NCBI GenBank assembly: GCA_964398775.1
Contig: CAYNND010000006.1
Location: 3,890-67,889 of the forward strand
DNA length: 64,000 bases
Source: an uncultured Candidatus Saccharibacteria bacterium
GTDB lineage: Bacteria > Patescibacteriota > Minisyncoccia > Phycocordibacterales > UBA2100
Reading direction: 5' to 3'
Shown: one piece after another, positions 817 to 45,247 of the stretch
Numbering within the stretch: position 1 is the first letter of the stretch
Layout: each line of letters begins with the position of its first letter
Position numbers and translations under genes: made by a program
Notes under the pieces: generated by a model
Database searches by the model: none
The model's input: only the letters and a program-made list of their open reading frames with translations
Told to the model about the DNA's origin: nothing

Positions 817-852
817 GGGGGCCGTTTTCCTTGCGGAGCGTACCCCCTTCTG

Positions 853-3931: not shown

Positions 3932-3953
3932 AAAACGCCCAAAGGGCGTTTTG
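3932..3953. terminator. bidirectional intrinsic terminator between the 1335-3881 gene and tRNA-His
   Basis: aaaaCGCCCaaaGGGCGtttt: perfect 5-bp GC stem, A-run 5' and T-run 3'. Confidence 0.55.
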
Positions 3954-3956
3954 TTC

Positions 3957-4032: not shown

Positions 4033-4095
4033 AATGCGTGGATTTATAGCATTTTTTGCTACAAGTTACAATTTTTACAAAGTAACATCAAATGC

Positions 4096-4124
4096 TTGAC
4101 TTTTTAGATGAGATTTTTATTATA
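4096..4124 (+). promoter_or_regulatory. sigma70-like promoter candidate
   Basis: TTGACT, 16-17 nt spacer, TATTAT(A), upstream of ORFs at 4151/4197. Confidence 0.35.
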
Positions 4125-4196
4125 TTTTCGGAAGGGTATGTCTTCCAGGCATGAGGGAAACCTCAGATGATTATTTAGTAATATGTAATTATCGCT

Positions 4197-4586: not shown

Positions 4587-4597
4587 TAAGATAAAAC

Positions 4598-5047
4598 ATG
4601 AATAATACACCAACACACCGTGAACATAATCGTTCAATTTTCGACTCATTTTTTGACGATACGTTCTTTGAGCCAATGTTTACTGTCAGGCCGTTGCAAA
4701 CAATGCAGCGCATGCACACGTTCCCAAAGATTGACGTAGAGGAGCATGATCATGAATACGTAATAAAAGCGAACATCCCGGGTATTGAGCCAAAAGATGT
4801 TCACATTGAGGCAACCGAAGATGGTCTCTATATCTCAGGAACCTACTCGCGCGAGGAACGCAAAGAAGAAAAAGGCAAGCTGTCTCACTATGAACGGGAA
4901 TCCGGCTCATTTGCGCGACATATACCACTTGGTGCTGCTCTTAACAGCGATGGTATACGTGCACAGGCGAAGCATGGAGTCTATACAATCACAGTACCCA
5001 AGGCACAACATTCAAAAAAGAAAAAGATCGAGATTGAAACAGAATAA
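4598..5047 (+). CDS. Hsp20/alpha-crystallin family small heat-shock protein
   Basis: ACD-like motifs: VIKANIPGIEPKDVHIEATEDGLYISG...HYERESGSFARHIPL...GVYTITVPK. 149 aa. Confidence 0.8.
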   Translation: MNNTPTHREHNRSIFDSFFDDTFFEPMFTVRPLQTMQRMHTFPKIDVEEHDHEYVIKANIPGIEPKDVHIEATEDGLYISGTYSREERKEEKGKLSHYERESGSFARHIPLGAALNSDGIRAQAKHGVYTITVPKAQHSKKKKIEIETE

Positions 5048-5055
5048 CTAGCACT

Positions 5056-5433
5056 TTACTGCAATGCACGCCGTGTCATCGCGACATCGGCGTGCATTTG
5101 TTGTGTGAGTGTTTCGGCATCTTTAAATGTTGCGATATCACGGATAAATGCGACGTGTGTGCATGCAATGGGGGTGTTGTGTGGAGTAGGAGAAAGGTCT
5201 GTGACGTCGAGCAAATACACTTCGAGCTGTTCGGTCGTTATACCAAAGGTAATTGGAGGGCCGAAGTAGAGTGCTGCGGAATAGGTCGCTCCTTGCAATG
5301 TTACGCGCGCAGCATAAATACCTCTTTTTTCGTTGAGTAGTGCATCAGGAATCTCCATATTAATAGTTGGAAATCCAAGCGTTTTTCCTCTACCAAAGCC
5401 AGGTTTCGTAGTTGTGTTATAGGTAATCATCAT
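5056..5433 (-). CDS. monofunctional riboflavin kinase (RibF C-terminal-domain type)
   Basis: GFGRGKTLGFPTINM resembles the riboflavin kinase GxGRGxxLGFPTAN motif. 125 aa. Confidence 0.6.
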   Translation of the reverse strand: MMITYNTTTKPGFGRGKTLGFPTINMEIPDALLNEKRGIYAARVTLQGATYSAALYFGPPITFGITTEQLEVYLLDVTDLSPTPHNTPIACTHVAFIRDIATFKDAETLTQQMHADVAMTRRALQ

Positions 5434-6340
5434 GCGCAGTGTTGCTGACTTGTATCATGGCGTACAGGAGCACGATGGCTGCAATGTACTGAGTGAAGTG
5501 CAGTACTGAGTCATATAATACTACATCAATAATCACAGCGATAAGCGGGAATGCGAGTTCAAGAATCGTAGCAACGCGCACTGGAGTTTTCTCAAGTCCT
5601 TTGTAGTACAAAAAGAGTGCAACCATACCTGTAGAAAGCGCAATTGTGAGCAGAATGACGATATCCATACCTGTAACCGAGGCGAGTGATGAGACATGAC
5701 CCATTCCTACAATAAAAAATGGCGCAAAGAGGGCAGTGGCGATAAAACGAAGCGCAGTTGCGTTGACGGCTCCATGCATGAGGGTCAGTCTGCGAGAAAA
5801 CGCTGTGCTACTACCCCAGAGCAGCGCCGCACCAAGTGCAAATAATGCCGCAATCATTGTCCCGTCACCAGTGTTTAGATTTACAATGCCGAGTGGGAAT
5901 GTGACAAAAAATGCTGCAATAAGTGCCAGTGCTGCCCATGGCATAAAGTGCTTCGGCAGTGTTTCTTTAAGCACAATCCATCCAAAAAGTATTGCAAACA
6001 GAGGCTGGAGTTTCTGAAGAAGAAAGACTACGGAGAAAGGTATGAACTGTGTCGCGAGCAGTGCTTGCGTAAAGAACAATGTTCCCAAGATGCCCGAGAA
6101 GAGTGCTACACCCGCGATTAAGACAAGAGAAGTGCGGTCTAGATGTATTTTTCTTAAGCTGTTCCAGCAGAATAGTGCAATGAGGAGTGCGCCTATCCAA
6201 TGTTCAATTGAGATTATGGTTATAGCAGGGAGGTGATAGAGGCTGCGGCGGAGTATTCCATCAAGCGCCCAGAGCGCGGCGGCTGAAAGTATGAGTAGTG
6301 AGGAGTGGGAAATAAATGCGCCCCGTGTGTGAGATATCAT
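5417..6340 (-). CDS. EamA/DMT-family 10-TM transporter
   Basis: 307 aa, about 10 hydrophobic helices in two repeated halves. Overlaps the downstream gene by 17 nt. Confidence 0.55.
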   Translation of the reverse strand: MISHTRGAFISHSSLLILSAAALWALDGILRRSLYHLPAITIISIEHWIGALLIALFCWNSLRKIHLDRTSLVLIAGVALFSGILGTLFFTQALLATQFIPFSVVFLLQKLQPLFAILFGWIVLKETLPKHFMPWAALALIAAFFVTFPLGIVNLNTGDGTMIAALFALGAALLWGSSTAFSRRLTLMHGAVNATALRFIATALFAPFFIVGMGHVSSLASVTGMDIVILLTIALSTGMVALFLYYKGLEKTPVRVATILELAFPLIAVIIDVVLYDSVLHFTQYIAAIVLLYAMIQVSNTAHDDYL

Positions 6341-6375
6341 CGCGTAATTGTAGCTTGCGCATGCGTGTATACAAG

Positions 6376-8379
6376 CTATTTCTGTGGTGGGATACTTCGC
6401 GCGTCAAGTTCATACATGTAAGTCCCATCAGTTAGGAGTGTTGCATGCGGGTCGACAATAACAGGGATACCGGCCTCTCGAGCCATAATTGCGAGATGTG
6501 ACAATGTGCTGCCTGTCGTCGCGATAATACCTGTGATAGACGGAAAGTATTGGACAAGGTCAGGCGAAAGAGCTGTTGTGAAGAGAATGTACTCTTTCTT
6601 TTGAGCAGGAGCTTGTCTTAGGTATGTTTCATCAACTACCAAACCGCGAGCATACCCATGCGCAATGATGCGGACCGTAGTGTCTGATCCAAGTGGCACA
6701 GTGCTCAGTGTGAGTGACGGCACGATAGGTAGGGATTGTTCTCTGTATATCAGTCGCTCTCGCAGTAGTGATTCAATCGCAGCACCATTCTCCAATTCTT
6801 CAAAGAGCATGTATGGCGCAAGCTCATGTGGAATCGAACAAGTATCTGCGATGTGCTCAGCGAAATGACGTGTGTGATGCGCACACCATGCGCTCCCACA
6901 GCGCGCTTCTTCTCGGAGTGTCAGGAGTGCAGCGAGATTTTTTGCGAGCTCTCGCGCAGTGTGGTCGGTATGTGCATGGACTGGAGCAAAATGTCTCTCA
7001 TTTCGTTCTGCGTGCATAAATGTACTGAGGTCTTCGATTGCAAGTGAATTACCTTGTGGGTACCGAGCGCGAAGTGCATATGGTGCCTGAGGAATTTCGG
7101 CAACACAGAGTGGAATCGATGTCTCTTTTCCTTTGAGATGAGCTTTTAGTTTTGATTCGGCGACAAATGCTAATATATTTATTGTAAAAACAACTTGGTA
7201 CACCTCATGCAGGAGTGCAGTAAGTTCTTGCCAAGAATGTATCTCTGCTGCTTCGCAGCGAGAGAGTGCCGATGCGAGCATGTCGCTCTGTATGGTAAAC
7301 GCTTCTGCACCGGTATCAATACGAGCAAATGCAGCACTATTTGTATAGGTACTCCAAAACCCACGCAGCGATGCGACATGTGGCGTCAAATTCGAACTTC
7401 CAAAGTACGAATGAGAAGGGAAAAAACTCCGCAACTCAGCTTCTTTATCAGTATATAGATATACACCAACGCAGGTAAAAGGTTCTTTCATGCTGATCTG
7501 TACGCCCTGCTGTTTATACGCAGCTTGGATGGGACCACGTTCGCTGTACAAATACGAGAGGAGTGAGTATGTAAGTGGTACAGGGTGAGGGTATGTTTCT
7601 GCAGGACCTGAGCGCTCAAGGTATATACGCTCGCCGCGCTCTTTTTCAAGTTTCACATACAAGTCATGTAACGCTGCTGAGACGGTAGTGATGGGGCGTG
7701 TCTGTACGATATGTACGCGGACTCCGTCGTACACCCACTCAATATCTTGTGGGCACGCATATGTCGCTTCGAGAGAGAAACCAGTCGACACAATGGAGTG
7801 CATCCACGAAAATGGCAATTGCTTTGTGTTGTTTCGGTGGAAGGTACATTCAGAACTATCAGTACCTGAGACAACATGTGGTGTCGCACCTTTTGACCAT
7901 GCCATCATGCTCATCAAGCCGCCGCGTGGGTCGCGAGTGAATAAGACACCTGTGTAGTGCGGAGTAATATAAGGTTGTATGAGGAGAGAAAACGAGGTGA
8001 ATCCAGCAAGTTTTTCCTGTGCATCTGTAAGGACTGTCGTAAGCGCTTGCGCGATATCTGCAGGTGTCTGTGCAACAGCGCTTGTGAACTGCCCTGCATG
8101 CGCGTGCTCTGCGCCATCTTCATGCAAGCCACTTGAGCGTATAATACAGGGTGTGTGAATAGATTGGAGTAATGCCTCTGAGAGTTGAGTGATGCCAGTA
8201 GCAATTGATGGTTCGCAGAGCGCAACAAGGTTGCATGCGCTGACGCCAAATACGGGGAGGCCCATACCACTTTTCATGAGTGGCAAGAGTCGTGTTGTTT
8301 TTGGTCCAAAATCCTGTGGGTGCGTTTGGATTGCTGCAGCGTCTTCTATGAGTGGATTCATATATCTAGAGTGATTCAA
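6376..8379 (-). CDS. PEP-utilising enzyme family protein. N-terminal pyruvate-phosphate-dikinase ATP-grasp domain and a C-terminal phospho-histidine mobile domain.
   Basis: IRSSGLHEDGAEHAHAGQF and GVLFTRDPRGG are PPDK_N-like. C-terminus TGSTLSHLAIMAREAGIPVIV is mobile-domain-like. 667 aa. Confidence 0.7.
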   Translation of the reverse strand: MNHSRYMNPLIEDAAAIQTHPQDFGPKTTRLLPLMKSGMGLPVFGVSACNLVALCEPSIATGITQLSEALLQSIHTPCIIRSSGLHEDGAEHAHAGQFTSAVAQTPADIAQALTTVLTDAQEKLAGFTSFSLLIQPYITPHYTGVLFTRDPRGGLMSMMAWSKGATPHVVSGTDSSECTFHRNNTKQLPFSWMHSIVSTGFSLEATYACPQDIEWVYDGVRVHIVQTRPITTVSAALHDLYVKLEKERGERIYLERSGPAETYPHPVPLTYSLLSYLYSERGPIQAAYKQQGVQISMKEPFTCVGVYLYTDKEAELRSFFPSHSYFGSSNLTPHVASLRGFWSTYTNSAAFARIDTGAEAFTIQSDMLASALSRCEAAEIHSWQELTALLHEVYQVVFTINILAFVAESKLKAHLKGKETSIPLCVAEIPQAPYALRARYPQGNSLAIEDLSTFMHAERNERHFAPVHAHTDHTARELAKNLAALLTLREEARCGSAWCAHHTRHFAEHIADTCSIPHELAPYMLFEELENGAAIESLLRERLIYREQSLPIVPSLTLSTVPLGSDTTVRIIAHGYARGLVVDETYLRQAPAQKKEYILFTTALSPDLVQYFPSITGIIATTGSTLSHLAIMAREAGIPVIVDPHATLLTDGTYMYELDARSIPPQK

Positions 8380-9523
8380 TGTGTGCGATACCGACGACAG
8401 GTACTACGGAACCATCAGCACGTTTGACTGTGCCCGAAACAGTACGTCCATGGAGTTCACCAGCATAGCGTGTGCCTGAACTGAGTGAGAGTGTAAAAGG
8501 TACATCGAGTGAGGTTACCTCCCACGCAGTACTTTTTTCATTGAGTGCATTTCCTTGCACTGTCGCTCTGAAGCCTTTATACGCGGCACCATCAATTCGT
8601 TTTAGAAGGACCCACTGATGTGAAGTATATGCTGGAACTGGGTTGGTTACATCTGATCTATCGACAACATACGCATTTCCTTCGGTATCAAAAACTATAA
8701 ATTGTGTAGCAAGTCCGCGTACATCGTTGAAGCCTTCAAAATACACTTGCTTTGTGTAATCACGTGAGTAGACAGGGGAGACAAACACATATGCATCGAC
8801 ACTGACACCATTTACTTGTAGCTCGGCGGTCCCGATACTCGCTTCTTTAAAATAGAGTGGTGTATTTTTTTCCAAGAAGTCACCAGAAAGATTTTTGATA
8901 CGGGCATCTATGCGCTGCTCTTCTATGACTGCACTGAGGTCGATGCTATAGCGCGCTGACAAGTCTGGAGCTCGAGTTACTTCAAGGGTATGCAAGTATC
9001 CGACAGGGGCGATGGTGAGTGCATTCGTGGTACCTGCGGTGTACGCGCTATAGGTGCGTGTTCCAGATACAAATGCAGCGTAGTGATAGAACTCAAAAGA
9101 AGCTTCTTTCTCCCGCACATTTAAATCAAACTCAACTGCGAGTGGCTCAGCGGTGTTTTTTCCAATAAGCACAATACGCAAAGCGCTCATTTCTGGGCGT
9201 ACCCCTTCTTGCACATGAGGAACACTGACATGTGTTCGTGGTGGTTCTTGTTGTGAAAAGAGAAAAATAGACACGATGCCACCGATGAGTATCGCTGCAA
9301 TGCATACTTGCACTATCCAGAAACGAAATGAGTTAGCACGCATATATGTACTCAGTGACAGCCACATACCTGAAAGAATCACGCTTATGGCGACAAATGA
9401 TTGTGTGAGTGTCGAAGTTACTGAAAAAATAATATCAGGAGGGAGTACTGCGTGTGCCGGTGACGGGAGCAGTAGCAGTATGAGGAGTACAGAGGCAAAT
9501 GTGCGCATATGCCTAGTATACAA
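8366..9523 (-). CDS. hypothetical membrane protein. Signal peptide plus 2-3 TM helices, then an extracytoplasmic domain.
   Basis: 385-aa ORF. N-terminus MRTFASVLLILLLLPSPAHA. Sits directly downstream of trpA on the same strand. Confidence 0.5.
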   Translation of the reverse strand: MYTRHMRTFASVLLILLLLPSPAHAVLPPDIIFSVTSTLTQSFVAISVILSGMWLSLSTYMRANSFRFWIVQVCIAAILIGGIVSIFLFSQQEPPRTHVSVPHVQEGVRPEMSALRIVLIGKNTAEPLAVEFDLNVREKEASFEFYHYAAFVSGTRTYSAYTAGTTNALTIAPVGYLHTLEVTRAPDLSARYSIDLSAVIEEQRIDARIKNLSGDFLEKNTPLYFKEASIGTAELQVNGVSVDAYVFVSPVYSRDYTKQVYFEGFNDVRGLATQFIVFDTEGNAYVVDRSDVTNPVPAYTSHQWVLLKRIDGAAYKGFRATVQGNALNEKSTAWEVTSLDVPFTLSLSSGTRYAGELHGRTVSGTVKRADGSVVPVVGIAHIESL

Positions 9524-19466: not shown

Positions 19467-19492
19467 AAAACCCCGCGCTCGCGGGGTTTTTG
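19467..19492 (+). terminator. intrinsic terminator
   Basis: aaaaCCCCGCGctcGCGGGGttttt. Confidence 0.6.
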
Positions 19493-19540
19493 TGTGGATA
19501 CGCACATAGCTCAAACAGGATACTGTGTCACACTACTCGG

Positions 19541-20458
19541 ATGAAACGTGAGCGAGTGAAAAAAACTCCGGAAAAAAAACCAACAACGAAGATTAAAAAA
19601 ACACGACGCACTCCAAAAGTTCCGAAGGTGCAACATAGTCGATGGGCTCATCGTATGAGTGTTGTTGTAGTTGGGGTTGTATGTGTTGGGTCGCTTGCCG
19701 CCGCTACATATGTATATGGTGCACGTCCGGCACTTTACACACTCAATATGCCACGGCTTGCAGCACTGCTACATACGAATGATGCTGATGTACTCATGGA
19801 GTTAGGGAATCGCTTCCTGAGTCCAGAATCATACAATCTTGCCAAAGCGCGCCAAGCATATGGGCGTGTGCTTACCATTGACCCAGCATACCCAGGAGCA
19901 AACTATCAAATCGGAAGAACGTATTTTCTCGTCGGTGACCATGCGCTTGCACTCATGTACCTCAGTGAAGAAGAGCGACTCAGACCGGAGTTCGGGAAGG
20001 TGCATTACATGAAAGGACTTGTATACGGTTACATGAAAAAGTTTGATGAAGCAGGTAGAGAATTTCGTGCGTTCATTGAATTCGATTCTTTTAATTGGGC
20101 TGGGTACAACGACCTTGCATGGGTATATTTTTCACAAGGGTACTATGAAGATGCAGAGGCAATCGCACGCGAGGGACTCGCTCGTGCATCAGGCAACCCA
20201 TGGCTGAACAACGCAATCGGCGTTTCGCTGCTTGCACAAGGGCGAGGTCCGGAAGCGGCGCTCTACTTTAAAGATGCGCGTACAGGATTTCAAAACATGA
20301 CAGCTGCAGAGTGGGGAGGTGCATACCCAGGTAATTCACCTGACGAACATGAGCGCGGACTTGCTGCATCATTGAGTGCAGTCGAACGTAATATCGAACG
20401 TGCCGAGTCAGCGCTCCTCCCCAGTGGAAAACCTGATATACAATCAAGTCAAGAATGA
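19541..20458 (+). CDS. membrane-anchored TPR-repeat protein
   Basis: Basic N-terminus, one TM (MSVVVVGVVCVGSLAAATYVY), then TPR-like helical repeats (AKARQAYGRVLTIDPAYPGANYQIGRTYF...). Start set to the internal Met. Confidence 0.55.
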   Translation: MKRERVKKTPEKKPTTKIKKTRRTPKVPKVQHSRWAHRMSVVVVGVVCVGSLAAATYVYGARPALYTLNMPRLAALLHTNDADVLMELGNRFLSPESYNLAKARQAYGRVLTIDPAYPGANYQIGRTYFLVGDHALALMYLSEEERLRPEFGKVHYMKGLVYGYMKKFDEAGREFRAFIEFDSFNWAGYNDLAWVYFSQGYYEDAEAIAREGLARASGNPWLNNAIGVSLLAQGRGPEAALYFKDARTGFQNMTAAEWGGAYPGNSPDEHERGLAASLSAVERNIERAESALLPSGKPDIQSSQE

Positions 20459-20474: not shown

Positions 20475-22052
20475 ATGAAAACAAAGCACCATCGTGTGAA
20501 AAAAATTAGTAGCACGCTCTTGATTCCAGCTGGAATCGCGCTCGCATTAGTCCTGATGGTGCTCTACAAACCTGCAGATAGCACTTTTGTCGAGATTGGA
20601 TACACTGAGCAGTCACCACTCGGAGAGACAGGAGGTGAAATTATTCCTGCATCATGTCCTTCTCACTTGCACGATGCTCCAGTCAACTATGGTGCTACCT
20701 GTTATTCAGGGGCAAATGCATGTGGTCAAACAGCCACTGGAACGATTCAGTGTAATGGGGCATGTAGCGCTGCTACCCCAGGAGTTACAACTCCTACTGG
20801 TGCTACCTACGGTGCGGCATGTACTTCAGCAGCAAATGCATGTGGTCAGACAAACACAGGAACGATTCAATGTGATGGATATTGCAGTGTCGGACAACCA
20901 GCAAACCCTGTGGGGTATGGTAATGCATGCTCAGGTCCCGCGAACAGTTGTGGTAGTACCAACTCAGGAACGTTAACGTGCTCTGGTGGTAGTCCAACAC
21001 TCTACTGTACCGCAACATCAGCTCCAGCTGATCCAGTACTCCCCGCAACATGTGGCTGTGCAAGCCCACCTGTAAACTACGGTACAGCATGTACAAGTGG
21101 CGCAAATATCTGTGGATTTACGAATACGGGTACTATTCAGTGCAATAGCACCTGCAGCGCTACAACGCCATCTGACTCACTCTGCACAAGCACCTGTGGA
21201 AATGGTGTCTGTGATGCACATGAAACTGTCGGCAGCTGCCCAGCAGACTGTCCAGGTTCAGGAACACCACTCACAGGATGGGGATGGAGTGATAACATTG
21301 GCTGGATATCAGTGAACTGTTCTGACCTTGGGACTTGTGCGACGCGTAACTATGCGCTTCGAAAAAATACTTCAAACAAAATTGTCGGATACGCATGGAG
21401 TGAGAACATCGGGTGGATTAGTGCAAACGCGTCAGAGCTTGCAGGGTGCCCAAGTGGTTCGTGTGATGTCAGTGTCTCATCGCTTGGACGTGTGTCAGGA
21501 TGGATGAAGGCATTAAACGCAGCGGGTGGCTGGGACGGATGGATTTCACTCAATGGTACAAACTATCAAACTATGCTCGAGTCAGACAACATACTTTCAA
21601 ACTGGGCATGGGGAAGTGATGTAACGGGTTGGATTCTCTGGTCAGCACAACTTTCATGTGCGCAGACAGCAGGTGATTTCTGCTCGGGAGACTTGTGGCA
21701 GCATCGTCATCCAAACTGTACTGTGACAACGGTACTCGACTGTGCTCCAAGTACATGTTCAACAAGTACAAACCAGTGTGTCGTTATGCCACCACCATCT
21801 GCAATCACGGGACTTCGTGCGACGCCACAACTCGTCTCGCCAGGAGGTACATCGGTTATAAGTTGGAACATTAAGAACGCGACCTCATGTACAGTGAGCG
21901 GTAACGGCAACTCGTGGACTGGTGTGACCGGTACTCAGACAACCAACCCTATTAACACAGTCTCAACATATACACTCAGTTGTACTGGACTCGGAGGTAA
22001 CCTTACACAGACAGCAATCATCAAGTTTGCTCCGAAGTGGCAAGAGAAGTAA
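20475..22052 (+). CDS. secreted Cys-rich repeat protein with W-rich NIGWIS repeats and a C-terminal Ig-like domain
   Basis: Signal anchor. Four ~40-aa repeats (VN)YG(A/T)ACTSGANxCGQTNTGTIQC(N/D)GxCS. Four W(S)xNIGWIS-type repeats. C-terminus ...ISWNIKNATSCTVSGNGNSW...STYTLSCTGLGG is a beta-sandwich-like pattern. Confidence 0.6.
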   Translation: MKTKHHRVKKISSTLLIPAGIALALVLMVLYKPADSTFVEIGYTEQSPLGETGGEIIPASCPSHLHDAPVNYGATCYSGANACGQTATGTIQCNGACSAATPGVTTPTGATYGAACTSAANACGQTNTGTIQCDGYCSVGQPANPVGYGNACSGPANSCGSTNSGTLTCSGGSPTLYCTATSAPADPVLPATCGCASPPVNYGTACTSGANICGFTNTGTIQCNSTCSATTPSDSLCTSTCGNGVCDAHETVGSCPADCPGSGTPLTGWGWSDNIGWISVNCSDLGTCATRNYALRKNTSNKIVGYAWSENIGWISANASELAGCPSGSCDVSVSSLGRVSGWMKALNAAGGWDGWISLNGTNYQTMLESDNILSNWAWGSDVTGWILWSAQLSCAQTAGDFCSGDLWQHRHPNCTVTTVLDCAPSTCSTSTNQCVVMPPPSAITGLRATPQLVSPGGTSVISWNIKNATSCTVSGNGNSWTGVTGTQTTNPINTVSTYTLSCTGLGGNLTQTAIIKFAPKWQEK

Positions 22053-22082: not shown

Positions 22083-22853
22083 ATGAAAAAATCTTTCTAC
22101 GTACTATTTTTCCTACTTCCATTTTCAGCACTCGCCTGGACGGGACCATCTGCAGCACCACCAGGGAACAATATCTCTGCACCAGTAAATACAAGTAGTG
22201 CAGATCAGTTCAAGCCTGCTGTAATGGGTGCAGATATTCTAAATATCACTGGGGCAAATCAGTACTTTAATTTTGGCAATACAACCGGTTCTGCAGGTTT
22301 TGGCTTTCGAAACAATGGCGGTATTGTCGAATACAAGCAAAATGCAGGACAAAACACTGCCGCAGGGTGGACCGAGTTTGGGCAGGGACGAGGGAGTCTG
22401 ATGAAGATACGACTCGCACAGTGTGGTGGCGGTTGCGCTAGTTATCATGCACTCAATACATGGATAAATGTCTCTGGATACGGATACACATGGTCTACCG
22501 CGCTCAACACAGACTCAAGTACATTTACGCATAACAATACAGGAACAATTACTGTCTCAAAGGCTGGTGTATATCGTGTACGAGTTGGCACTATGTTTGT
22601 CCCAACTACTGATGCTGCCTATGTTTACGGATGCCCGATTATAAATGGCTCTGCAAACTGTGGGCCGCTTGGCTCTGCTGAGGGGTTGCGCCACTCATAT
22701 CATCCAGCGGGCTGGTGGGGTCAGAATATTACGTCGTTTATTTTTGAACTTACTGCTGGTACGACCGTCGGGTATGGTTACTACACACCATACACACTTT
22801 CATACTGGGCGAACGATTCCTACACGTTTCTTGAAGTAACTCGAGTTAATTAA
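22083..22853 (+). CDS. secreted fibre/adhesin-like protein, paralog family member A1 (conserved N-module plus C-terminal domain type A)
   Basis: Signal peptide, then AWTGPSAAPPGNNISAPVNTSSADQFKP...NFGNTTGSAGFGFRNNGG. 256 aa. About 65% identical to the next gene. Confidence 0.7.
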   Translation: MKKSFYVLFFLLPFSALAWTGPSAAPPGNNISAPVNTSSADQFKPAVMGADILNITGANQYFNFGNTTGSAGFGFRNNGGIVEYKQNAGQNTAAGWTEFGQGRGSLMKIRLAQCGGGCASYHALNTWINVSGYGYTWSTALNTDSSTFTHNNTGTITVSKAGVYRVRVGTMFVPTTDAAYVYGCPIINGSANCGPLGSAEGLRHSYHPAGWWGQNITSFIFELTAGTTVGYGYYTPYTLSYWANDSYTFLEVTRVN

Positions 22854-22920
22854 TAATCATACTTGTATCATGCACACAAAACTTTATATAAAAAAATATA
22901 CGAAACAGGCACAGGGAATC

Positions 22921-23688
22921 ATGTTTATCCTGCTCGTTTCTTTTTTGGGCGCAGGTTTGGTAAGTGCATGGACTGGTCCAACAGCAGTACCTCCGAACAA
23001 CAACGTTGCTGCGCCAGTAAACGTAGGAGGGGCGAACCAGTCAAAACCAGGACTCATCGGCGCAAATATTTTCAATGTCTATGGTTCAGGACAGTACATA
23101 AACTTCGGCACTACCACAGGCTCATCAGGTTTTGGCTTCCGCAACAATGGTGGCATCATAGAATATAAACAAAGTGCAGGACAAAATACTGCAGCAGGAT
23201 GGACTGAAGTGGGGAAGGGCCGTGGTAGTTATGTACGTATCGCACTCAATTACTGTGGTGGCGGTTGTGGAAGCTACCATGCGCTCAACACTTGGGTGCG
23301 CGTGTCGAATTATGGATATACATGGACAACGTATACCAATACTGACACTGCAACATTCACACCAAACGGCACTGGCACCGTCACAATAAATAAAGCAGGC
23401 GTGTATCGTATTCGCCTCCAGACAATGATGATTCCAACCGCAAGCACTGCATGGACTGCATACGGATGTCCAATGATAAACGGAGTAGAAAACTGTGGAC
23501 CACTCGGAGCGGGTGAAGGATTAAAGCACGCATATTACCCAGCAGGGTGGTGGGGACAAAACATAACTGAATTCACTTTTGAACTTTCAGCTGGAAACAC
23601 AGTAGGATATGCATACTATATCCCTGTTGCGATGAGTTACTGGGCACACGATACGTATACATTCCTCGACATACTTCGTCTGAACTAA
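22921..23688 (+). CDS. secreted fibre/adhesin-like protein, paralog A2
   Basis: Start moved to the internal Met (MFILLVSFLGAGLVSAWTGPTAVPPNNNV...). Collinear with A1 over its full length, including the GCP(I/M)ING..NCGPLG...PAGWWGQNIT C-domain. Confidence 0.65.
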   Translation: MFILLVSFLGAGLVSAWTGPTAVPPNNNVAAPVNVGGANQSKPGLIGANIFNVYGSGQYINFGTTTGSSGFGFRNNGGIIEYKQSAGQNTAAGWTEVGKGRGSYVRIALNYCGGGCGSYHALNTWVRVSNYGYTWTTYTNTDTATFTPNGTGTVTINKAGVYRIRLQTMMIPTASTAWTAYGCPMINGVENCGPLGAGEGLKHAYYPAGWWGQNITEFTFELSAGNTVGYAYYIPVAMSYWAHDTYTFLDILRLN

Positions 23689-23693
23689 ATCGT

Positions 23694-24302
23694 ATGAATC
23701 GACTTATTCTCATAATTGTGAGTGGTATCGTTGCTGGTGGGGTTGTTTGGTATATTTTCTCTCACGGGATATCTACACCACAAAAATCTCAAACCACTTC
23801 GGCTGATACTATGACCATGGAAGCGGAAGTGAAGCGAGTACTTATGTTCATGCACCCACATATAACCGAAGAAGTTGCCGATGAGTACTTGGATGAACTT
23901 AAAACTTTAAACAAGCAATATGGGTATACTTCAGGTGGTGAGCCAAAAGGGGATATTGAGACGATGCGTGCGTATGCAGGAGCAGTCGAGGTAATCCAAA
24001 AAAAGTACAACATGATGCCGCAGGCAGATACCCAGGCAGCTCCAGCGTCAGGGTACCCGCAGCCACATCTTGCACCACAACAGACCGATACAATGTACAT
24101 GCCTCCGTCACAGATAGGTAGTCAGAGCACCACTACGCAGAGCCCTGCTCTGCAAACCGCAGGCTCGCAGAAACCACTCGGTCCAACTGCAAATCCAAAC
24201 AGTGGTGCGGCAAAGGGTGGTCCGGCGTCAACTCCACCACTAATCCAGCAAGACAATCTACCTCCAGCACCTCCTGTGCCTCCTCAAATGAGTAGTGAAT
24301 AA
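23694..24302 (+). CDS. membrane-anchored Pro/Gln-rich protein
   Basis: N-terminal TM LILIIVSGIVAGGVVWYIF, a helical segment, then a P/Q/T/A-rich tail ending PPAPPVPPQMSSE. 202 aa. Confidence 0.55.
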   Translation: MNRLILIIVSGIVAGGVVWYIFSHGISTPQKSQTTSADTMTMEAEVKRVLMFMHPHITEEVADEYLDELKTLNKQYGYTSGGEPKGDIETMRAYAGAVEVIQKKYNMMPQADTQAAPASGYPQPHLAPQQTDTMYMPPSQIGSQSTTTQSPALQTAGSQKPLGPTANPNSGAAKGGPASTPPLIQQDNLPPAPPVPPQMSSE

Positions 24303-24373
24303 AAAAACTGCTTCTATCTTGAAAGGTGTGCACAGAAAACATCTATGATGTTTTGACATGATACGATACATGC

Positions 24374-25636
24374 ATGTCTAAGCGTACTTTCTTATTGGTA
24401 GTACTGTCTTGCGCGATCCCTGTTGCACTCTTTGCCTGGACAGGACCATCAGCTGCACCACCAGGAAACAATGTCTCAGCTCCAGTGAACATCGGTTCAG
24501 CCGATCAGTTCAAACCAGGTATCATGGGGGCAAATATCATCAATATTTACGGCTCAAGTCAGTATCTTAGTTTTGGGAACACCACGGGAGCGAGCGGATT
24601 TGGTATCAGAAATAATGCAGGCTATTTAGAGTTCAAAAATAGTGGTGGTGCATGGAACCGCTTCGGCCCACCATTTACTGCAGGCTTAAGTGTGAGTGGT
24701 ACTCTCGGTACGCTCTATGGTGGCTCATATCGTATCAATGCAAACGGTGACAACGCAACAGGTGGAGGAATACTCATCGCAGACGATGGAGGCTTCTTTG
24801 ACTATAATGACGGGTGGGTTACATTTAACGGTTCAACAGGCATCAAGATTGCAGGAAATAATGGTGCGGCAAGTCAGGGCAATCAGCTACAGGTGAATGG
24901 AAGAATCGATGCAAATTCCTATGGAGGTAACGGGGGAATCATCTCATCAGGAAATTATGGTGGAACAGGAACCGCTGCATATTTTCCCTCAGGCATCTGG
25001 GCAAATGGTGCAAGTTCATGGCTCTATGGGACCATCTATACAAATGGACAGGTATACGATACTGCGGTTGGTACAGTGCGCGATGCGGGGGGTGGCTGGA
25101 TTCGTACCTATGGTGCAACTGGGTGGTACTCACAAACGTATGGAGGTGGCTGGCATATGTCCGACACGACATGGCTCAGAGCATACGGGAACAAAAATGT
25201 CTATACACCAGGCACAATCAGAGGTGATGCATCGCTCGACTCAAACAATCTCTGCGACCCTGCACACTCATATTGCTCAACGATATATGGTTTGTGGTAT
25301 GTGCATACGTACTACTATTCTGACAAACGGTTGAAAAAAGATATTAAAGATATGTCAGATGATTATGGTCTTGGAGCAATCATGAAGCTACGCCCTGTGC
25401 AATTTACATGGAAAGACAAAACTTCTTCAGAAAAACTTGGTCCACAAATTGGTCTCATCGCACAAGAAGTTGAACAAGTGATTCCTGAGGCTGTGGATAC
25501 TATGCCAAGTAAGGAAATTACTAACGAAGATGGCACGAAAGAAACAATTGAAAATCCAAAATCAGTCACGCATCAGAACCTTGTTGTACCGCTGATTAAG
25601 TATGCACAAGACTTAAAAGCACTCAACGATGTGTAA
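24374..25636 (+). CDS. secreted fibre protein with the conserved N-module and a C-terminal S74-type intramolecular chaperone (tail-fibre/endosialidase auto-processing) domain
   Basis: N-terminus FAWTGPSAAPPGNNVSAPVNIG...FGNTTGASGFGIRNNAG. Gly/Asn-rich middle. C-terminus YYSDKRLKKDIKD...LRPVQFTWKD...GLIAQEVEQVIPEAV matches the SDxRLKxNI / GxIAQEV..V.PE.V signature of the phage tail-spike chaperone domain. Confidence 0.75.
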   Translation: MSKRTFLLVVLSCAIPVALFAWTGPSAAPPGNNVSAPVNIGSADQFKPGIMGANIINIYGSSQYLSFGNTTGASGFGIRNNAGYLEFKNSGGAWNRFGPPFTAGLSVSGTLGTLYGGSYRINANGDNATGGGILIADDGGFFDYNDGWVTFNGSTGIKIAGNNGAASQGNQLQVNGRIDANSYGGNGGIISSGNYGGTGTAAYFPSGIWANGASSWLYGTIYTNGQVYDTAVGTVRDAGGGWIRTYGATGWYSQTYGGGWHMSDTTWLRAYGNKNVYTPGTIRGDASLDSNNLCDPAHSYCSTIYGLWYVHTYYYSDKRLKKDIKDMSDDYGLGAIMKLRPVQFTWKDKTSSEKLGPQIGLIAQEVEQVIPEAVDTMPSKEITNEDGTKETIENPKSVTHQNLVVPLIKYAQDLKALNDV

Positions 25637-25754
25637 CAGAAAAAATAGATGCCCCCAAGAAACAGGTCAGAGAGTTGCAGTCACGGTAGACATATACACA
25701 TATAGAAGCGTAGGAGTGACAGCCCCTGCGGGGAAAGTGCTACGATGGTAGGGT

Positions 25755-26477
25755 ATGCACCGAATCATCACTATTATTTGCGCTGTACTTTTTCCAGCAG
25801 CACTCTTTGCATGGACAGGTCCGACAGCTGCACCACCTGGAAACAACATCGCTGCGCCAGTCAACGTCGGCGGTACTGACCAGTTCAAGCCTGCAATTGT
25901 CGGCGCGAACATTGTCAACATTTACGGTTCAAACCAGTATTTGAACTTTGGTAACACAACTGGTTCAACAGGATACGGTATCCGCAACAACGGAGGGAAG
26001 CTCGAGGCAAAGAACTCAGGTGGCGCATGGATTAAGCTTATAGATAAGCCATGGTTTGTCGCAAGTGGCGATGGATACGGCTGGCAGGGACAATCAGCAG
26101 GTACGTGGCTCTACCCAACAACACTCACAACCTTACGAGGCAATGCAACCGCAAGTTACAACCCTGCAACGGCGCTCTTCACAGCACCTGAAGCAGGTCT
26201 CTATTTCTGTTTCTTCCAGGGGTATAAGAGTTATACAGCTGCAGGGTATCACCATACCATTTCAACATGTAATGGCACGGTCTGTAATGGTTTTGGTAGC
26301 TGGGACTATACACTCGCATCACAGGGGTATACCTCATATGACCAATCAACATCACAAATCTCTGGAATCTATAACCTCGCACTCGGGGAAACAATTGGCT
26401 TTCGTATGTACTCTGAACAAGCAAACAGCTACTCATACTACCCACCATACTCACGCACGGGATGCGCAAAATTGTAA
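25755..26477 (+). CDS. secreted fibre/adhesin-like protein, paralog B1 (conserved N-module plus C1q/TNF-like C-domain)
   Basis: FAWTGPTAAPPGNNIAAPVNVG...NFGNTTGSTGYGIRNNGG. C-domain FTAPEAGLYFCFF...YYPPYSRTGCAKL. 240 aa. Confidence 0.7.
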   Translation: MHRIITIICAVLFPAALFAWTGPTAAPPGNNIAAPVNVGGTDQFKPAIVGANIVNIYGSNQYLNFGNTTGSTGYGIRNNGGKLEAKNSGGAWIKLIDKPWFVASGDGYGWQGQSAGTWLYPTTLTTLRGNATASYNPATALFTAPEAGLYFCFFQGYKSYTAAGYHHTISTCNGTVCNGFGSWDYTLASQGYTSYDQSTSQISGIYNLALGETIGFRMYSEQANSYSYYPPYSRTGCAKL

Positions 26478-26917
26478 CTATGAGTAAAACACTATTCATC
26501 ACAATAGTCCTTATTGCAACGCTTGCAGGCGCGTGGTGGTTTTTAAGTACTGACTCAGGCTCATCGAGTATCATAGGAGTACCGGTTCACAAAGAGGAAA
26601 AAGCTGAACCACCAAACTTACCGAAGCCACCAAGTTTTGTTGAGCGAGTACTGAAGGACAATCCACATATTTCAAGAGAGACTGCAGAGCAATATGAAGC
26701 TGAGCGCATACAAACAAATGTCGCGCATCAAGAGTATCGTGTGCGCGTCTTAAAAGAAAAAAAAGTGAGCGACCCTGAGGAGATGATTGCAATTGAACAG
26801 GGTTTGGCACTTGAGCTGCAGGCACAATTTGAACAGCTTGAAGCAAAATACAATATCCATATGCAGCAGGGGAAGCCTGGTTTTATTGGGGCACCGATTC
26901 CGCCCCCACTCCCATAG
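26462..26917 (+). CDS. membrane-anchored Pro-rich small protein
   Basis: TM LFITIVLIATLAGAWWFL, a helical acidic middle, and a C-terminus GKPGFIGAPIPPPLP. The start may be the internal Met at about 26480. Confidence 0.5.
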   Translation: MRKIVTMSKTLFITIVLIATLAGAWWFLSTDSGSSSIIGVPVHKEEKAEPPNLPKPPSFVERVLKDNPHISRETAEQYEAERIQTNVAHQEYRVRVLKEKKVSDPEEMIAIEQGLALELQAQFEQLEAKYNIHMQQGKPGFIGAPIPPPLP

Positions 26918-26928
26918 TAGATGTATAT

Positions 26929-27702
26929 ATGAACAACAACAGCTATAGCACACTGATACGTACCATTTGCTCAGCAGTAGTCGCAGCGTTTTTGATTGCA
27001 ACCTGTGGGGTGCAGACGCTTGCTGCATGGACTGCTCCTACGGGAACACCGGGCAATAATAATGCAGCACCACCTGTAAATACCGGAACAGGGACTCAGG
27101 CAAAACCAGGCGTGCTTGGAGCAAACATTCTGAACATTTATGGTTCAAACTTGTATCTCAACTTCGGTAACCCAGACGGTGCAAGTGGTTTCGGTATTCG
27201 CAGTAACGCAGGTGTGCTCGAAGGTAAAGATTCTGGGGGAGCGTGGGGCAAGCTTATAGATAAGCCATGGTTTATTGCAAACGGCACTTCAGCAGTGTGG
27301 CAGTCTCAGGGTGCTGCGACTTGGCTCTATCCAACTGCGCTTGATAATAAAAAAGGTAATGCCGCAGCGAGTTTTAACTCAGCAACAGGGTACTTCACTG
27401 CTCCAGAGGCTGGAGTTTACCTCTGTTTTTTCAGTGGGTATAAGAGTTACTCCACTCCTGATGTTCACCACACCATATCTACATGTTCAGGCGGCCCGAG
27501 CTCAGTATGCAACAACTTCGGAAACTATGACTATACGCTTGCTTCACAAGGATATTCGGGCTATGACCAGTCAACATCACAGCTTATCGGACTCTACAAT
27601 CTCATTGCGGGTGAAAGCATCACATTCCGTATGTACTCAAGTGCGGGAAACAGCTATGCGTACTACCCACCGCAGAGTCGTATGGGCTGCGCTAAGCTGT
27701 AA
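26929..27702 (+). CDS. secreted fibre/adhesin-like protein, paralog B2
   Basis: AAWTAPTGTPGNNNAAPPVNTG... Collinear with B1 through FTAPEAGVYLCFF...YYPPQSRMGCAKL. 257 aa. Confidence 0.7.
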   Translation: MNNNSYSTLIRTICSAVVAAFLIATCGVQTLAAWTAPTGTPGNNNAAPPVNTGTGTQAKPGVLGANILNIYGSNLYLNFGNPDGASGFGIRSNAGVLEGKDSGGAWGKLIDKPWFIANGTSAVWQSQGAATWLYPTALDNKKGNAAASFNSATGYFTAPEAGVYLCFFSGYKSYSTPDVHHTISTCSGGPSSVCNNFGNYDYTLASQGYSGYDQSTSQLIGLYNLIAGESITFRMYSSAGNSYAYYPPQSRMGCAKL

Positions 27703-44092: not shown

Positions 44093-45247
44093 TTATTGTT
44101 CATCCTCTGTTGGAGCTTGTTTTTTTGTTGGGGTGATTGTGCAATTTGCTTTTGCGATAACGACTCTGTTGCGGCTACATCTGAGCTCGTATGTGGTTTT
44201 GCGAGTGGGGTGGATACTTACTGCACCGCGGAGTGCGCCTTTCGTTCTCCAGCGAGCATCAGCAGGTTTTGAGACTGCTCCTGATTTGGTAGAGCGACCT
44301 CCACATGAGAAGTGAATGCGGGTCTGTGAGCAATTCATTTTTGCGATAGTTTCGTCAGTACTCTCACTCCCTGCATTTGTGCTGCTTTTTGTGTCAGTTA
44401 CGTCAAATATGTTCTTTTGTTTGGGTTGGTTTCCAGAAGATACGCCAACACCTTTTGTTGTCGGATTTCCACTTTGTTCTGAAGGTTGTGTTCCTGTCTG
44501 TGCTGTGGCCGGTGCTGTTTGAGGGGTATTCGTATTTCCGAATGAACTAGGTTGTTGCTGTGTTGCAAGTGGTGCAGGTGCTACGCCTGGCGTGCAGTTA
44601 TATTTTCCGGAGGATGGATCGTACGAGCACTGCGCGCTGCCACTGTACGTGCACTGTGGGGCACAGCCGACGAATGGCATGTGCTGCTCAATTTTATTAT
44701 CGATGCCGAAATGATCTAAGTTCGGGTAGCGAACATTCGTAATCGGTGATGAGCCGCGAAGGTTTACTCCGGCATAACTTCCTGAGTTAGAAAAGAGTCC
44801 GACAGCTTGCACGACGTTACCAGGTACGGTCCCGGCAGAGCCAGCACTCGGGTCAGCGACAACAAGTGCGCTCACGCGGACATTTTGACCTGCAAGTTGG
44901 CGTGTCAGCTGTATGGCGCGGTTTGCTCCTGCAGAGTGTCCGACGATAGCTATCGTTGCGTTCGGATTTTGTGCACGACGCTGCATGATGTATTGGTATG
45001 CTTCACTGACTTGTGTGTGTTCATATACTGCGCCTCCGAATTTCTGTATAGCGCTATCGACACCATCAGATGGATTTCTACCGCCAGTGACTGAACGAAG
45101 CCCACGAAAGCCAACCATAATGTCCACTTTTTGCTGTCCCTGCGCATCGTTCGCACTTTCTGTTGCGTACGGGTATGTAGAAAATGCGATGCCGCACAGA
45201 GCGAGTACGCCCAGAAATACGCATGCCCGCACTCTCCTAGAAGTCAT
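44093..45247 (-). CDS. secreted alpha/beta-hydrolase (lipase/esterase-like) with a low-complexity linker and a C-terminal Ig-like domain
   Basis: Signal peptide, then GHSAG nucleophile elbow (ATIAIVGHSAGANRAI). S/T/Q/P-rich linker. C-terminus ...HFSCGG...TTYELRCS...ANCTI resembles the Ig-like tail of the 20475 gene. Confidence 0.5.
   Translation of the reverse strand: MTSRRVRACVFLGVLALCGIAFSTYPYATESANDAQGQQKVDIMVGFRGLRSVTGGRNPSDGVDSAIQKFGGAVYEHTQVSEAYQYIMQRRAQNPNATIAIVGHSAGANRAIQLTRQLAGQNVRVSALVVADPSAGSAGTVPGNVVQAVGLFSNSGSYAGVNLRGSSPITNVRYPNLDHFGIDNKIEQHMPFVGCAPQCTYSGSAQCSYDPSSGKYNCTPGVAPAPLATQQQPSSFGNTNTPQTAPATAQTGTQPSEQSGNPTTKGVGVSSGNQPKQKNIFDVTDTKSSTNAGSESTDETIAKMNCSQTRIHFSCGGRSTKSGAVSKPADARWRTKGALRGAVSIHPTRKTTYELRCSRNRVVIAKANCTITPTKKQAPTEDEQ

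Follow-up and report, generated by a model that had tools for sequence, protein, structure and literature searches.

Adhesins of the Gram-positive type present Ig or PKD domains on repeat stalks, and the LPXTG/sortase, PEP-CTERM, PGF-CTERM, GlyGly-CTERM and MYXO-CTERM signals are outlined in the available descriptions as a motif followed by a transmembrane helix and then by a basic cluster. The protein presented here is encoded in a 64-kb window (the whole stretch of DNA analysed) by a complete ORF of 525 aa plus stop codon (20475..22052, forward strand) with an ATG start, and it contains 36 Cys and 16 Trp. In contrast to the Gram-positive-type adhesins, it has no LPXTG-type signal and a predicted N-terminal helix anchor, it has no Ig, PKD or Big match in Pfam, and its stalk repeats and barrel fall outside the described families; the Pfam profiles of PKD, bacterial Ig-like (Big) and fn3 domains were all unmatched. 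Like the tripartite signals, the protein carries a short motif that is conserved close to the C-terminus in secreted proteins, but it ends one residue past the conserved Glu and has no hydrophobic segment there. Its last 40 residues comprise an Ig strand and the peptide APKWQEK with no hydrophobic stretch, and the NCBIfam sorting-domain models did not match.

As judged from its sequence, the gene product is probably a Sec-exported, membrane-anchored and disulfide-rich surface protein of Patescibacteria (CPR). These ultrasmall bacteria are mostly uncultured, and the cultivated members live attached to other microbes. To our knowledge, host recognition and holding in Patescibacteria are nearly unexplored beyond the type IV pili of Saccharibacteria. 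Pfam, NCBIfam and PHROGs gave no match to any module of the target protein, and neither did the PDB sequences, whether the query was the single protein or the family profile. Pfam was also run on every relative, 78 of the W family and 56 of the Cys-repeat family (the two families introduced below), and none of its matches fell over the new domains. The families, the gene cluster and the terminal motif were found nowhere described in the literature searched.

Architecture of the fused protein

By sequence comparison, the protein is a fusion of two Patescibacterial families, both unnamed and defined in this analysis from homolog-search matches. The members of the PAxC/Cys-repeat family (about 300-450 aa) match only the N-half, i.e. 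the transmembrane helix, the PAxC motif and the Cys repeats, and those of the W family (about 300 aa) match only the C-half, consisting of the W barrel, a linker and the Ig domain. The Ig domain and the terminal signature end both parent families. The fused form was restricted to close relatives of the target (P0001-5 and L006). Full-length orthologs with 57-90% identity came from independent sources (P0001-3 and P0005), and the fused architecture is therefore not an assembly artefact. Each half has retained its own neighbour, a TPR gene with the Cys-repeat half and WTGP genes with the W half. At least 557 matches to the W family were confirmed in the species-representative genome collection, and among the best 80 of these loci nearly all were labelled as Patescibacteria lineages.

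The N-half begins with a basic stretch, MKTKHHRVKK, and continues with a hydrophobic helix spanning about aa 14-31 (20475..20573, forward strand), a layout that recurs among the Cys-repeat family members. According to the positive-inside rule, the helix is a predicted signal-anchor with the N-terminus inside and the remainder of the protein outside, and it would hold the Sec-exported protein in the membrane. It is followed by the juxtamembrane PAxC motif, VEIGYTEQSPLGETGGEIIPASCPS (20586..20666, forward strand; PAxC at aa 58-61), which is kept across the family with the A5 consensus E.G.....P.G...G...PA.C.S. A lipobox at IPASC was ruled out, the Cys lying about 30 residues beyond the helix and Pro occupying position -3.

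Four 35-aa Cys-rich repeats with the consensus NYGNACTSAANACGQTNSGTIQCNGSCSATTPANP were located at 20685..21179 on the forward strand. According to the HMM they span aa 71-105, 111-145, 147-187 and 201-235, and the domain E-values range from 1e-11 to 1e-18. In the self dot-plot, a check named beforehand by the sequence-only reading of the window, the internal repeats were recovered with 15-mer diagonals scoring 54-74 compared with at most 41 over 20 shuffles. That reading had counted four repeats with 5-6 Cys apiece; the four repeats stood, and the count was corrected to 4 Cys per 35-aa unit. In other proteins up to 10 Cys units are arranged in tandem. No Pfam family covered the Cys-repeat region among the 56 relatives. 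The N-half of the target had no Pfam match to thrombospondin type-1, EGF-like or other Cys-rich repeats, and the TSP1 matches in 2 of the 56 relatives fell in other domains. The repeats lead into a five-Cys mini-module, LCTSTCGNGVCDAHETVGSCPADC (21183..21251, forward strand), which was read from the sequence, is kept in the orthologs and had no database match. The target combines the features by which the family was delimited: an N-terminal helix, PAxC and four units where at least two were required. It also has an orthologous TPR neighbour.

Disulfide-knotted modules are plausible for this region, given the 4 Cys per unit and the even total of 36. The PAxC segment and the four repeats would most likely form a disulfide-stiffened stalk that carries the remainder of the protein off the membrane. 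This role is a guess: in the AF2 prediction the pLDDT of repeats R1-R3 was below 50, and R4 was a hairpin. YcaO and nitroreductase genes were observed near Cys-repeat genes in three genomes. The Cys repeats as YcaO (RiPP-like) substrates were ruled out; the window has no YcaO or nitroreductase gene, and the Cys-repeat proteins are of large size and bear a membrane anchor.

The C-half opens with a Trp-rich beta-barrel of four hairpins (21264..21647, forward strand; strands at about aa 269-279, 302-316, 339-358 and 373-389). Four W(S)(D/E)NIGWIS-like repeats had been proposed from the sequence, and they were borne out in three ways. WSDNIGWIS (aa 271-279) and WSENIGWIS (aa 308-316) gave a dot-plot score of 68. 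The self-alignment of the W-domain profile (columns 15-59 against 94-130, P=5e-11) revealed an internal duplication, which supports the two degenerate W copies at the family level. AF2 confidently folded the four hairpins into one small closed beta-barrel. The W family is characterized by four G-W hairpins in which Trp and Gly columns are invariant. The target has these hairpins, and its residues in columns conserved to at least 90% are G268, W271, S272, G305, W308, G313, W314, W343, G355, W379 and G380. Two conserved loops are predicted to be closed by the disulfides C282-C288 and C325-C330. The barrel is continued by a beta-rich linker (21657..21779, forward strand) with confident AF2 strands and six Cys (C395, 403, 415, 423, 428 and 435), all at least 90% conserved within the W family.

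The W barrel itself might be the business end of the protein, a lectin-like, ligand-binding or membrane-interface-binding module acting as a stand-alone adhesin, which we consider rather unlikely. The four tight hairpin turns, with invariant Trp on either side of each, would lie at one pole, opposite the stalk and the linker-Ig pole, where they could make up an aromatic crown for binding glycan, cell wall or membrane. In favour of such binding are the invariant G-W columns in each of the four hairpins, the strands of which are conserved on both faces, and the up-and-down topology of the model, which would bring the beta1-2, 3-4, 5-6 and 7-8 turns to the same end. The best structural matches of the barrel in the PDB are 8-stranded, and they are the ligand-binding or surface-displayed barrels of hemophilin, TbpB, fHbp, NHBA and avidins. 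Furthermore, aromatic-rich hairpin repeats often bind carbohydrate or choline. However, the carbohydrate- and cell-wall-binding repeat families of Pfam were unmatched, and a binding barrel leaves the strong linkage to the WTGP genes unexplained.

Gene neighbourhood and fibre-like partners

The upstream neighbour (19490..20458, forward strand) encodes a protein that has a basic N-terminus, a transmembrane helix and a Pfam TPR domain, the last of which is predicted to face outward. Its orthologs lie directly upstream of Cys-repeat genes in L086-L088 (E-values of 1e-48 to 1e-52) and upstream of the Cys-repeat gene in L006 as well. Judged by homology and gene order in three independent genomes and the window, the TPR gene is a conserved partner of the Cys-repeat/PAxC half. 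The TPR protein was also considered as a receptor of the C-terminal tail. This is less convincing in view of L035, in which the TPR gene is paired with a 147-aa PAxC-motif protein that has no tail; the TPR protein may therefore recognize the N-terminal motif instead.

Downstream, a cluster at 22083..27702 on the forward strand contains five WTGP-module genes (22083-22853, 22870-23688, 24374-25636, 25755-26477 and 26929-27702) and two genes of small transmembrane proteins (23694-24302 and 26462-26917). The WTGP proteins share a conserved N-terminal module of about 85 aa and have variable, phage-tail-fibre-like tips, with Peptidase_S74, Gp10_C and tail-fibre PHROGs among their matches. The 24374 product carries Shufflon_N and Peptidase_S74 (Pfam) and matches tail-fibre PHROGs at 1e-19, and the products of 25755 and 26929 match phrog_15750. 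The leaders of the WTGP proteins are of the ordinary Sec type, not prepilin.

The description of the target as the head gene of this cluster held at the family level. A WTGP gene was present within 8 genes of 54 of the 82 W-family genes, most commonly at the +1 position on the same strand (44 cases). The linkage was kept in the 57%-identical ortholog despite different flanking genes. The cluster is flanked by housekeeping genes, and EF-G/EF-Tu was the commonest flank of the W genes (22 loci).

The linkage is the sole tie of the target to the fibres. Since the conserved functional core, which would comprise the W barrel, the three-disulfide linker, the Ig domain and the free C-terminal peptide, is encoded beside the WTGP genes, it most likely acts with the WTGP fibres at the cell surface as a scaffold, adaptor or assembly partner. 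The core and the fibres would then serve attachment to a host or substrate. We tentatively favour a surface scaffold that acts together with the fibre-like WTGP adhesins, at somewhat less than an even chance, and the conserved position before the fibre-like genes makes the protein a candidate part of the attachment machinery of Patescibacteria. Against the scaffold, 28 of the 82 W genes had no WTGP gene within 8 genes (many such loci end at contig ends), the Ig-tail module occurs also on proteins without WTGP neighbours, and the promoter and terminator scans remained at the shuffle background.

Alternatively, the W-family and WTGP proteins could be accessories of type IV pili, for instance adhesins associated with the tip or base. 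A PilB-type ATPase gene was found a few genes from the W gene in 11 fetched loci. In L039, L054 and L073 the genes of a small transmembrane protein, the W protein, WTGP protein(s), PilB, PilC, three prepilin-like proteins and a PilX-like protein follow each other on one strand, and L052 has the same order minus the WTGP gene. One WTGP protein of the window matches Shufflon_N (E=7e-10), the constant region of PilV, a thin-pilus adhesin of R64, and type IV pili are presented in a preprint as driving host binding in cultivated Saccharibacteria (10.1101/2024.11.25.624915). However, the window contains no pilus genes, most loci have no PilB adjacency, and the 11 loci are phylogenetically related and hence not independent. 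The WTGP genes and PilB are moreover 322-675 nt apart, and the Sec-type leaders of the WTGP proteins do not fit prepilins. A pilus accessory is accordingly regarded as distinctly improbable.

The phage tail-fibre domains of the neighbours, including the GP38, Gp10_C and Gly_rich_2 matches near the W gene in L005, could also mark the cluster as the remnant of a prophage or tailocin, with the head gene encoding a phage structural or fibre-assembly protein. No W-family relatives were found among 2.9 million viral contigs, the target had no PHROG match to phage tail or baseplate proteins, and the viral structure library (BFVD) gave only Ig-level matches (TMq up to 0.30). All the proteins have secretion leaders, and the housekeeping flanks are free of capsid, terminase and integrase genes. 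A prophage origin is thereby largely refuted, leaving it barely credible, and with no viral-contig relatives and with housekeeping flanks the W family is cellular, not viral.

The terminal Ig domain and its C-terminal signature

The target ends with an Ig-like beta-sandwich (21807..22028, forward strand) that has a conserved W464 and the Cys pair C472-C503; this agrees with the beta-sandwich pattern suspected from the sequence. As in the W family generally, this Ig domain with its Trp and Cys pair follows the six-Cys linker. The last residues, APKWQEK (22029..22049, forward strand), form the exact C-terminus and carry the family signature P-x-[FWY]-x-E-x-COOH. Among 1445 ORFs, the signature occurred at the exact C-terminal offset in 75, compared with 5-8 at other offsets. 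P at -5 was conserved in 158, the aromatic residue at -3 in 153 and E at -1 in 169 of 175 sequences. In the AF2 model the tail is a coil beyond the last strand, with pLDDT dropping from 86 to 71.

The signature was found on at least six architectures: W, Cys-repeat, CARDB-containing, fn3-containing, TSP1-containing and multi-Ig proteins. The Ig domain also forms long internal tandem arrays, which means that the domain by itself is not a sorting signal. The signature is missing from the internal Ig copies and from the Ig domains that end the proteins of the hydrolase family (see below), and it is thus not needed for the fold. The Ig-tail module was present on Cys-repeat proteins without WTGP neighbours as well, so the role of this module, at least, is broader. 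Seven ORFs bore the motif but matched none of the W, Ig, Cys-linker and Cys-repeat domains, a number equal to the background rate, and a C-terminal signal that stands apart from the Ig domain was ruled out on this count. Three 'SWLEI' proteins constitute one homologous PilX-like family.

The sequence-only reading had suggested a shared surface-display or sorting module on account of a tail recurring in a secreted alpha/beta hydrolase. The idea of a shared module held in its general sense, though on other evidence than the hydrolase: the terminal Ig domain with the exact signature is common to several otherwise different secreted proteins of Patescibacteria, and neither Pfam nor NCBIfam recognized a well-known unrelated domain in the target. 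The hydrolase is not among these proteins. Its ORF is 44093-45295 on the reverse strand, and its C-terminal domain (44117..44338, reverse strand) has a remote half-domain resemblance to the target tail and is not the same module. With the Ig-tail HMM the hydrolase was the best non-self match of 452 ORFs, yet at E=0.019 and 7.8 bits, and the profile-profile comparison gave P=7e-4 and a 26% probability over 27 columns. BLASTP between the target and the hydrolase tail found nothing, and the signature is absent from the hydrolase, the homologs of which finish in plain 'V.V.' strands. Tandem Ig-array proteins connect the two tails transitively. As far as these comparisons indicate, the two tails are at most distantly related members of one broad Ig class.

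The Ig domain with P-x-aromatic-x-E-x-COOH might, in a refinement of the sequence-only idea, constitute a generic sorting or retention signal for secreted proteins of Patescibacteria, the free C-terminal peptide of which would be read by a receptor or an enzyme that keeps the protein at the cell surface or processes it there. The position fixed at the exact C-terminus, the coiled tail of falling pLDDT, the variety of architectures and the independence of the Ig fold from the signature all agree with such a signal. In addition, most short W-family proteins have a signal peptide only and would need retention at the cell. On the other hand, the signature is not tripartite (neither a hydrophobic helix nor a basic cluster follows the motif), no candidate processing enzyme linked to it was found, and the background count of domain-less ORFs suggests that the motif may simply characterize a single domain subfamily. 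The target is already anchored by its predicted N-terminal helix, and it is the single carrier of the signature in the 64-kb window. A sorting signal is therefore doubtful, though it deserves consideration, and it is compatible with the surface scaffold and does not exclude it.

The boldest combination would join three statements: that in many Patescibacteria phage-derived WTGP fibres, carried or assembled by the W-barrel protein as a dedicated cellular partner, make up an undescribed host-attachment apparatus, that the Ig domain and tail represent a new non-tripartite class of retention or sorting signal, and that the target is a 'Rosetta-stone' fusion to the Cys-repeat/TPR module. That all three hold together seems fairly improbable. 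The widespread unannotated family, its pairing with variable fibre-like proteins and the C-terminal signature provide testable candidates for attachment and surface display. Three or four domain families could be added to the domain databases, resulting in a better annotation of the CPR 'dark matter'. If the target is merely a structural surface protein, the gain would be improved annotation and a clean gene fusion preserving both parental neighbourhoods.

Comparison with described systems

The known 8-stranded barrels (hemophilin, TbpB/fHbp/NHBA, OmpA/OmpW and avidins) share 3-11% identity with the W barrel and have no relation to it at the sequence level. The target barrel differs from them in its construction from four Trp-rich hairpin repeats, in its internal duplication and in its putative disulfide loops. 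The source lineages are generally considered to have no outer membrane. No Pfam match was obtained to CW_binding_1 or the Listeria GW modules, and the fold prediction yields a closed barrel, not a superhelical hairpin or SH3b-like fold.

The T9SS C-terminal domain of Bacteroidota (Por_Secre_tail) is likewise an Ig-like sandwich of about 80 aa at the extreme C-terminus of many unrelated secreted proteins, but it has no counterpart to the terminal peptide that defines the target family. The target had no Pfam or NCBIfam match to it (Por_Secre_tail/TIGR04183) at E-values up to 0.1, and a single weak Por_Secre_tail match (E=0.0098) was obtained among 56 relatives. Neither the examined loci nor the 64-kb window showed any T9SS genes.

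A free, acidic and position-fixed peptide is also characteristic of the C-terminal TPR and PDZ ligands, such as the EEVD-COOH of Hsp70/Hsp90 bound by the TPR of Hop and PTS1 bound by PEX5. A TPR gene adjoins the target upstream, and the likeness may be read as an analogy only. The PDZ ligands are conserved at -2 and 0, whereas the target family is conserved at -5, -3 and -1. Finally, the WTGP proteins resemble the receptor-binding fibres of phages in having a shared N-terminal module and variable tips, and they differ from them in being chromosomal, in carrying Sec leaders and in having a non-phage partner, the W family.

Repeats and two-family architecture

The target gene at window 20475-22052 (+) is an intact ATG ORF encoding 525 aa with 36 Cys and 16 Trp. 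An identical, unnamed protein is present in NCBI on a 69.9-kb contig, and full-length orthologs of 90, 80, 76 and 57% identity, from independent assemblies, indicate that the architecture is genuine and did not arise in assembly. Sequence-level searches of Pfam, NCBIfam, PHROGs and PDB matched neither the target nor its whole families. The protein is built from undescribed domains and belongs to a large family, with the best genome matches nearly all from Patescibacteria. The sequence-only reading of this gene proved to be real and mostly well described.

Both repeat types of that reading were recovered by a self dot-plot (BLOSUM62). The Cys-repeat diagonals scored 54–74 per 15 residues versus at most 41 across 20 shuffles. 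An iterated HMM delimited the units, four in all, to aa 71-105, 111-145, 147-187 and 201-235 (E-values 1e-11 to 1e-18) and gave the consensus NYGNACTSAANACGQTNSGTIQCNGSCSATTPANP. Four repeats had been proposed correctly, but with 5–6 Cys per unit; each contains four. The four proposed W repeats consist of two near-identical copies, WSDNIGWIS and WSENIGWIS (dot-plot score 68), and two degenerate ones. The W-domain profile aligned with itself (columns 15-59 against 94-130, P=5e-11, 97% probability), showing at the family level that the degenerate copies too are real.

The AlphaFold2 model of aa 255-525, based on a 78-sequence alignment, was confident and all-beta (mean pLDDT 91.7). The W domain was obtained again, with pLDDT above 90, in a second model of aa 36-440 lacking the Ig domain, where the pLDDT was below 50 for Cys repeats 1-3 and 63–80 for a hairpin formed by repeat 4. 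Two disulfide loops, the six-Cys linker and the Cys pair and Trp of the Ig domain are conserved in the family. A direct binding role of the Trp-rich pole of the W barrel is conceivable, with perhaps one chance in several.

Judged by sequence, the target protein fuses two families. Of its 765 homologs, the majority are ~300 aa long and comprise the C-half alone (signal peptide, W barrel, linker, Ig). The N-half search resulted in a second family, Paceibacterota proteins of ~300–450 aa in which an N-terminal helix is followed by the PAxC motif in juxtamembrane position, 2–6 Cys repeats and, in most cases, the same terminal Ig. The fused form with four repeats was found only in near relatives of the target.

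Terminal signature and hydrolase tail

Nearly every family member has P-x-aromatic-x-E-x as its exact C-terminus. Among 175 non-identical proteins ending in the Ig-tail domain, Pro at -5, aromatic at -3 and Glu at -1 were found in 158, 153 and 169, respectively. In 1445 ORFs from the fetched loci, [FWY]-x-E-x occurred 75 times at the precise C-terminus versus 5–8 times at each neighbouring offset. The motif was present on 51 of the 57 loci proteins with a terminal Ig-profile match and absent from internal Ig-domain copies. The terminal peptide was modelled by AlphaFold2 as a coil after the last strand, the pLDDT falling from 86 to 71. The signature was found on several architectures; in its variants the -3 position is V or I, or the protein ends in ...NW[KR]E[VI]AP. 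Motif-bearing ORFs in which none of the W, Ig, Cys-linker and Cys-repeat domains was matched numbered seven, which equals the background rate; a free-standing C-terminal signal was thereby rejected, and the signature appears to be a feature of a terminal-Ig subfamily. A retention or sorting role of the Ig-plus-tail module is a possible, though not the probable, explanation, and is compatible with the tethered-protein reading presented below.

A Cys-repeat subgroup (P0015, P0096, P0120, P0151, P0156, P0161, P0171, P0187, P0190) ends in ...NYNW[KR]E[IV]AP in place of Ig and P-x-aromatic-x-E-x. Its W-x-E-hydrophobic core is similar to the main signature apart from two additional residues, and in the three sequences read (P0015, P0096, P0120) the ending is preceded by a TSP1-like Cys-rich domain.

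The suggestion that the target's tail recurs as a shared module in the alpha/beta-hydrolase-like protein at 44093-45295 (-) was not borne out. BLASTP of the two tails gave no match. With the Ig-tail HMM the hydrolase was the best non-self ORF of 452, yet with E=0.019 and 7.8 bits, the match spanning the 'TTYxLxC' strand and the last strand. An exhaustive phmmer search resulted in 30 relatives of the hydrolase tail, including tandem arrays whose matched stretches were also matched by the Ig-tail HMM, thus linking the two tails transitively. The profile-profile comparison gave P=7e-4 and 26% probability over 27 columns, and in homologs of the hydrolase the C-terminus is a plain 'V.V.' strand lacking the signature. 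The hydrolase tail would be at most a remote relative in the same broad Ig-like class. Its homologs (P0122-P0149) usually carry two C-terminal domains, 'WSC...SRG...TTYT.QC' followed by a canonical Ig-like one; the window hydrolase has the first only, then a Lys/Glu-rich end.

Genomic partners of the two halves

In 86 loci, 54 of the 82 W-family genes had at least one gene with the WTGP module, a shared N-terminal module of secreted proteins, within eight genes, the commonest position being the next gene downstream in the same orientation (44 cases). In the 57%-identical ortholog the downstream genes are kept and the flanks differ. The five WTGP paralogs of the window (22083-27702, +; starting at 22083, 22870, 24374, 25755 and 26929) have in common a signal peptide and the ~85-aa module WTGPTAAPPGGNV.APVN.G..DQ.K.G.LG.N...V.GS..YLNFG.T.G..GYGIRNN.G.LE.KNSGGAW, of which 111 copies were found across 54 fetched loci and which belongs to no Pfam or NCBIfam family. 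The C-termini differ: Shufflon_N with Peptidase_S74 (tail-fibre PHROGs at 1e-19), Gp10_C, phrog_15750, Ig arrays and others; the window copies comprise two pairs resembling jelly rolls and a single tail-fibre-like protein with Shufflon_N/Peptidase_S74. The WTGP proteins look like phage receptor-binding fibres adopted by the cell and given secretion leaders. The W family had no relative among 2.9 million viral contigs, and its matches to viral structures were at the Ig level only. Its flanks are housekeeping genes, with EF-G/EF-Tu in 22 loci, and the window is ordinary chromosome (RecA, FtsK, tRNA synthetases). Repeatedly (L003/L009, L004, L035 and others) the W cluster is inserted into the otherwise conserved str/S10 ribosomal region, with fusA (EF-G) on one side and tuf (EF-Tu) on the other.

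The best-supported reading is that of a tethered protein with a disulfide spacer and a core acting with the WTGP fibres. The basic N-terminus followed by 18 hydrophobic residues suggests a helix that would tether the protein, the Cys repeats would form a disulfide-bonded spacer, and the gene linkage points to the conserved core working with the fibres at the cell surface. A connection of the W and WTGP proteins to type IV pili is improbable. The order small TM protein, W gene, WTGP gene(s), PilB, PilC, prepilins and PilX-like protein in L039, L054 and L073, and the same order without a WTGP gene in L052, speak for it; however, a gap of 322–675 nt precedes PilB, and the window contains no pilus genes. 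The type IV pilus-like cluster, located just downstream of W-family and WTGP genes in these four loci (for example L054 9507-18771) and also in L044 and L055, comprises PilB, PilC and three prepilin-like genes, together with a gene for a large beta-helix protein that is PilX-like and ends ...SWLEI.

Two small single-helix membrane proteins are encoded inside the window cluster (23694-24302 and 26462-26917, both +); inspection by eye shows a '...PHI(T/S).E.A.(E/Q)Y...' segment common to both, with Pro-rich tails after it. In 12 other loci, the gene immediately before the W gene likewise encodes a small TM protein, of ~110 aa. In one genome (L005 10021-12442), thioredoxin, DsbD-like and redoxin genes, none of which occurs in the window, lie 1–3 kb from a W-family gene and may be relevant to oxidative folding of these Cys-rich proteins. 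Pfam (E up to 0.001) gave no family for the ORFs 1335-3881 (848 aa), 8366-9523 (-) (385 aa), 45928-47886 (652 aa) and 50636-51508 (290 aa).

Each half of the target retains its own genomic partner. Orthologs of the TPR gene at window 19490-20458 (+) (36–38% identity, E 1e-48 to 1e-52) lie directly upstream of Cys-repeat genes in three unrelated contigs having neither W nor WTGP genes. As the TPR gene pairs with the Cys-repeat half and the WTGP genes with the W half, the target lies precisely where two conserved gene pairs meet. In L035 (11695-12994) a 147-aa PAxC protein lacking Cys repeats and the terminal tail is encoded directly upstream of the TPR ortholog, which suggests that the PAxC motif is the conserved partner and weakens the alternative of the TPR protein as a receptor for the target's tail. 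The TTG at 19490 probably lies ahead of the true start of the window TPR gene, since an ATG at 19538 opens with MKRERVKK. In L086-L088 (about 800-7950) the TPR gene is preceded by a conserved block of PQQ-propeller, AMMECR1, small ORF, nitroreductase and YcaO genes, none of which is in the window. An AI-2E transporter/Met-tRNA-synthetase-like gene pair (window 51953-54454, +; L086 14021-16717; L088 13567-16262) is found in the relatives ~5 kb downstream from the TPR and Cys-repeat genes, and in the window 30 kb off; this would fit a local rearrangement in the surroundings of the fused gene.

Comparison with known surface proteins

The gene context of the target leads to a specific, testable hypothesis of function, and the function is proposed only as such. 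The target-family signature differs from tripartite sorting signals in having no hydrophobic helix after it. The target itself is of a kind already known, the modular bacterial surface proteins.
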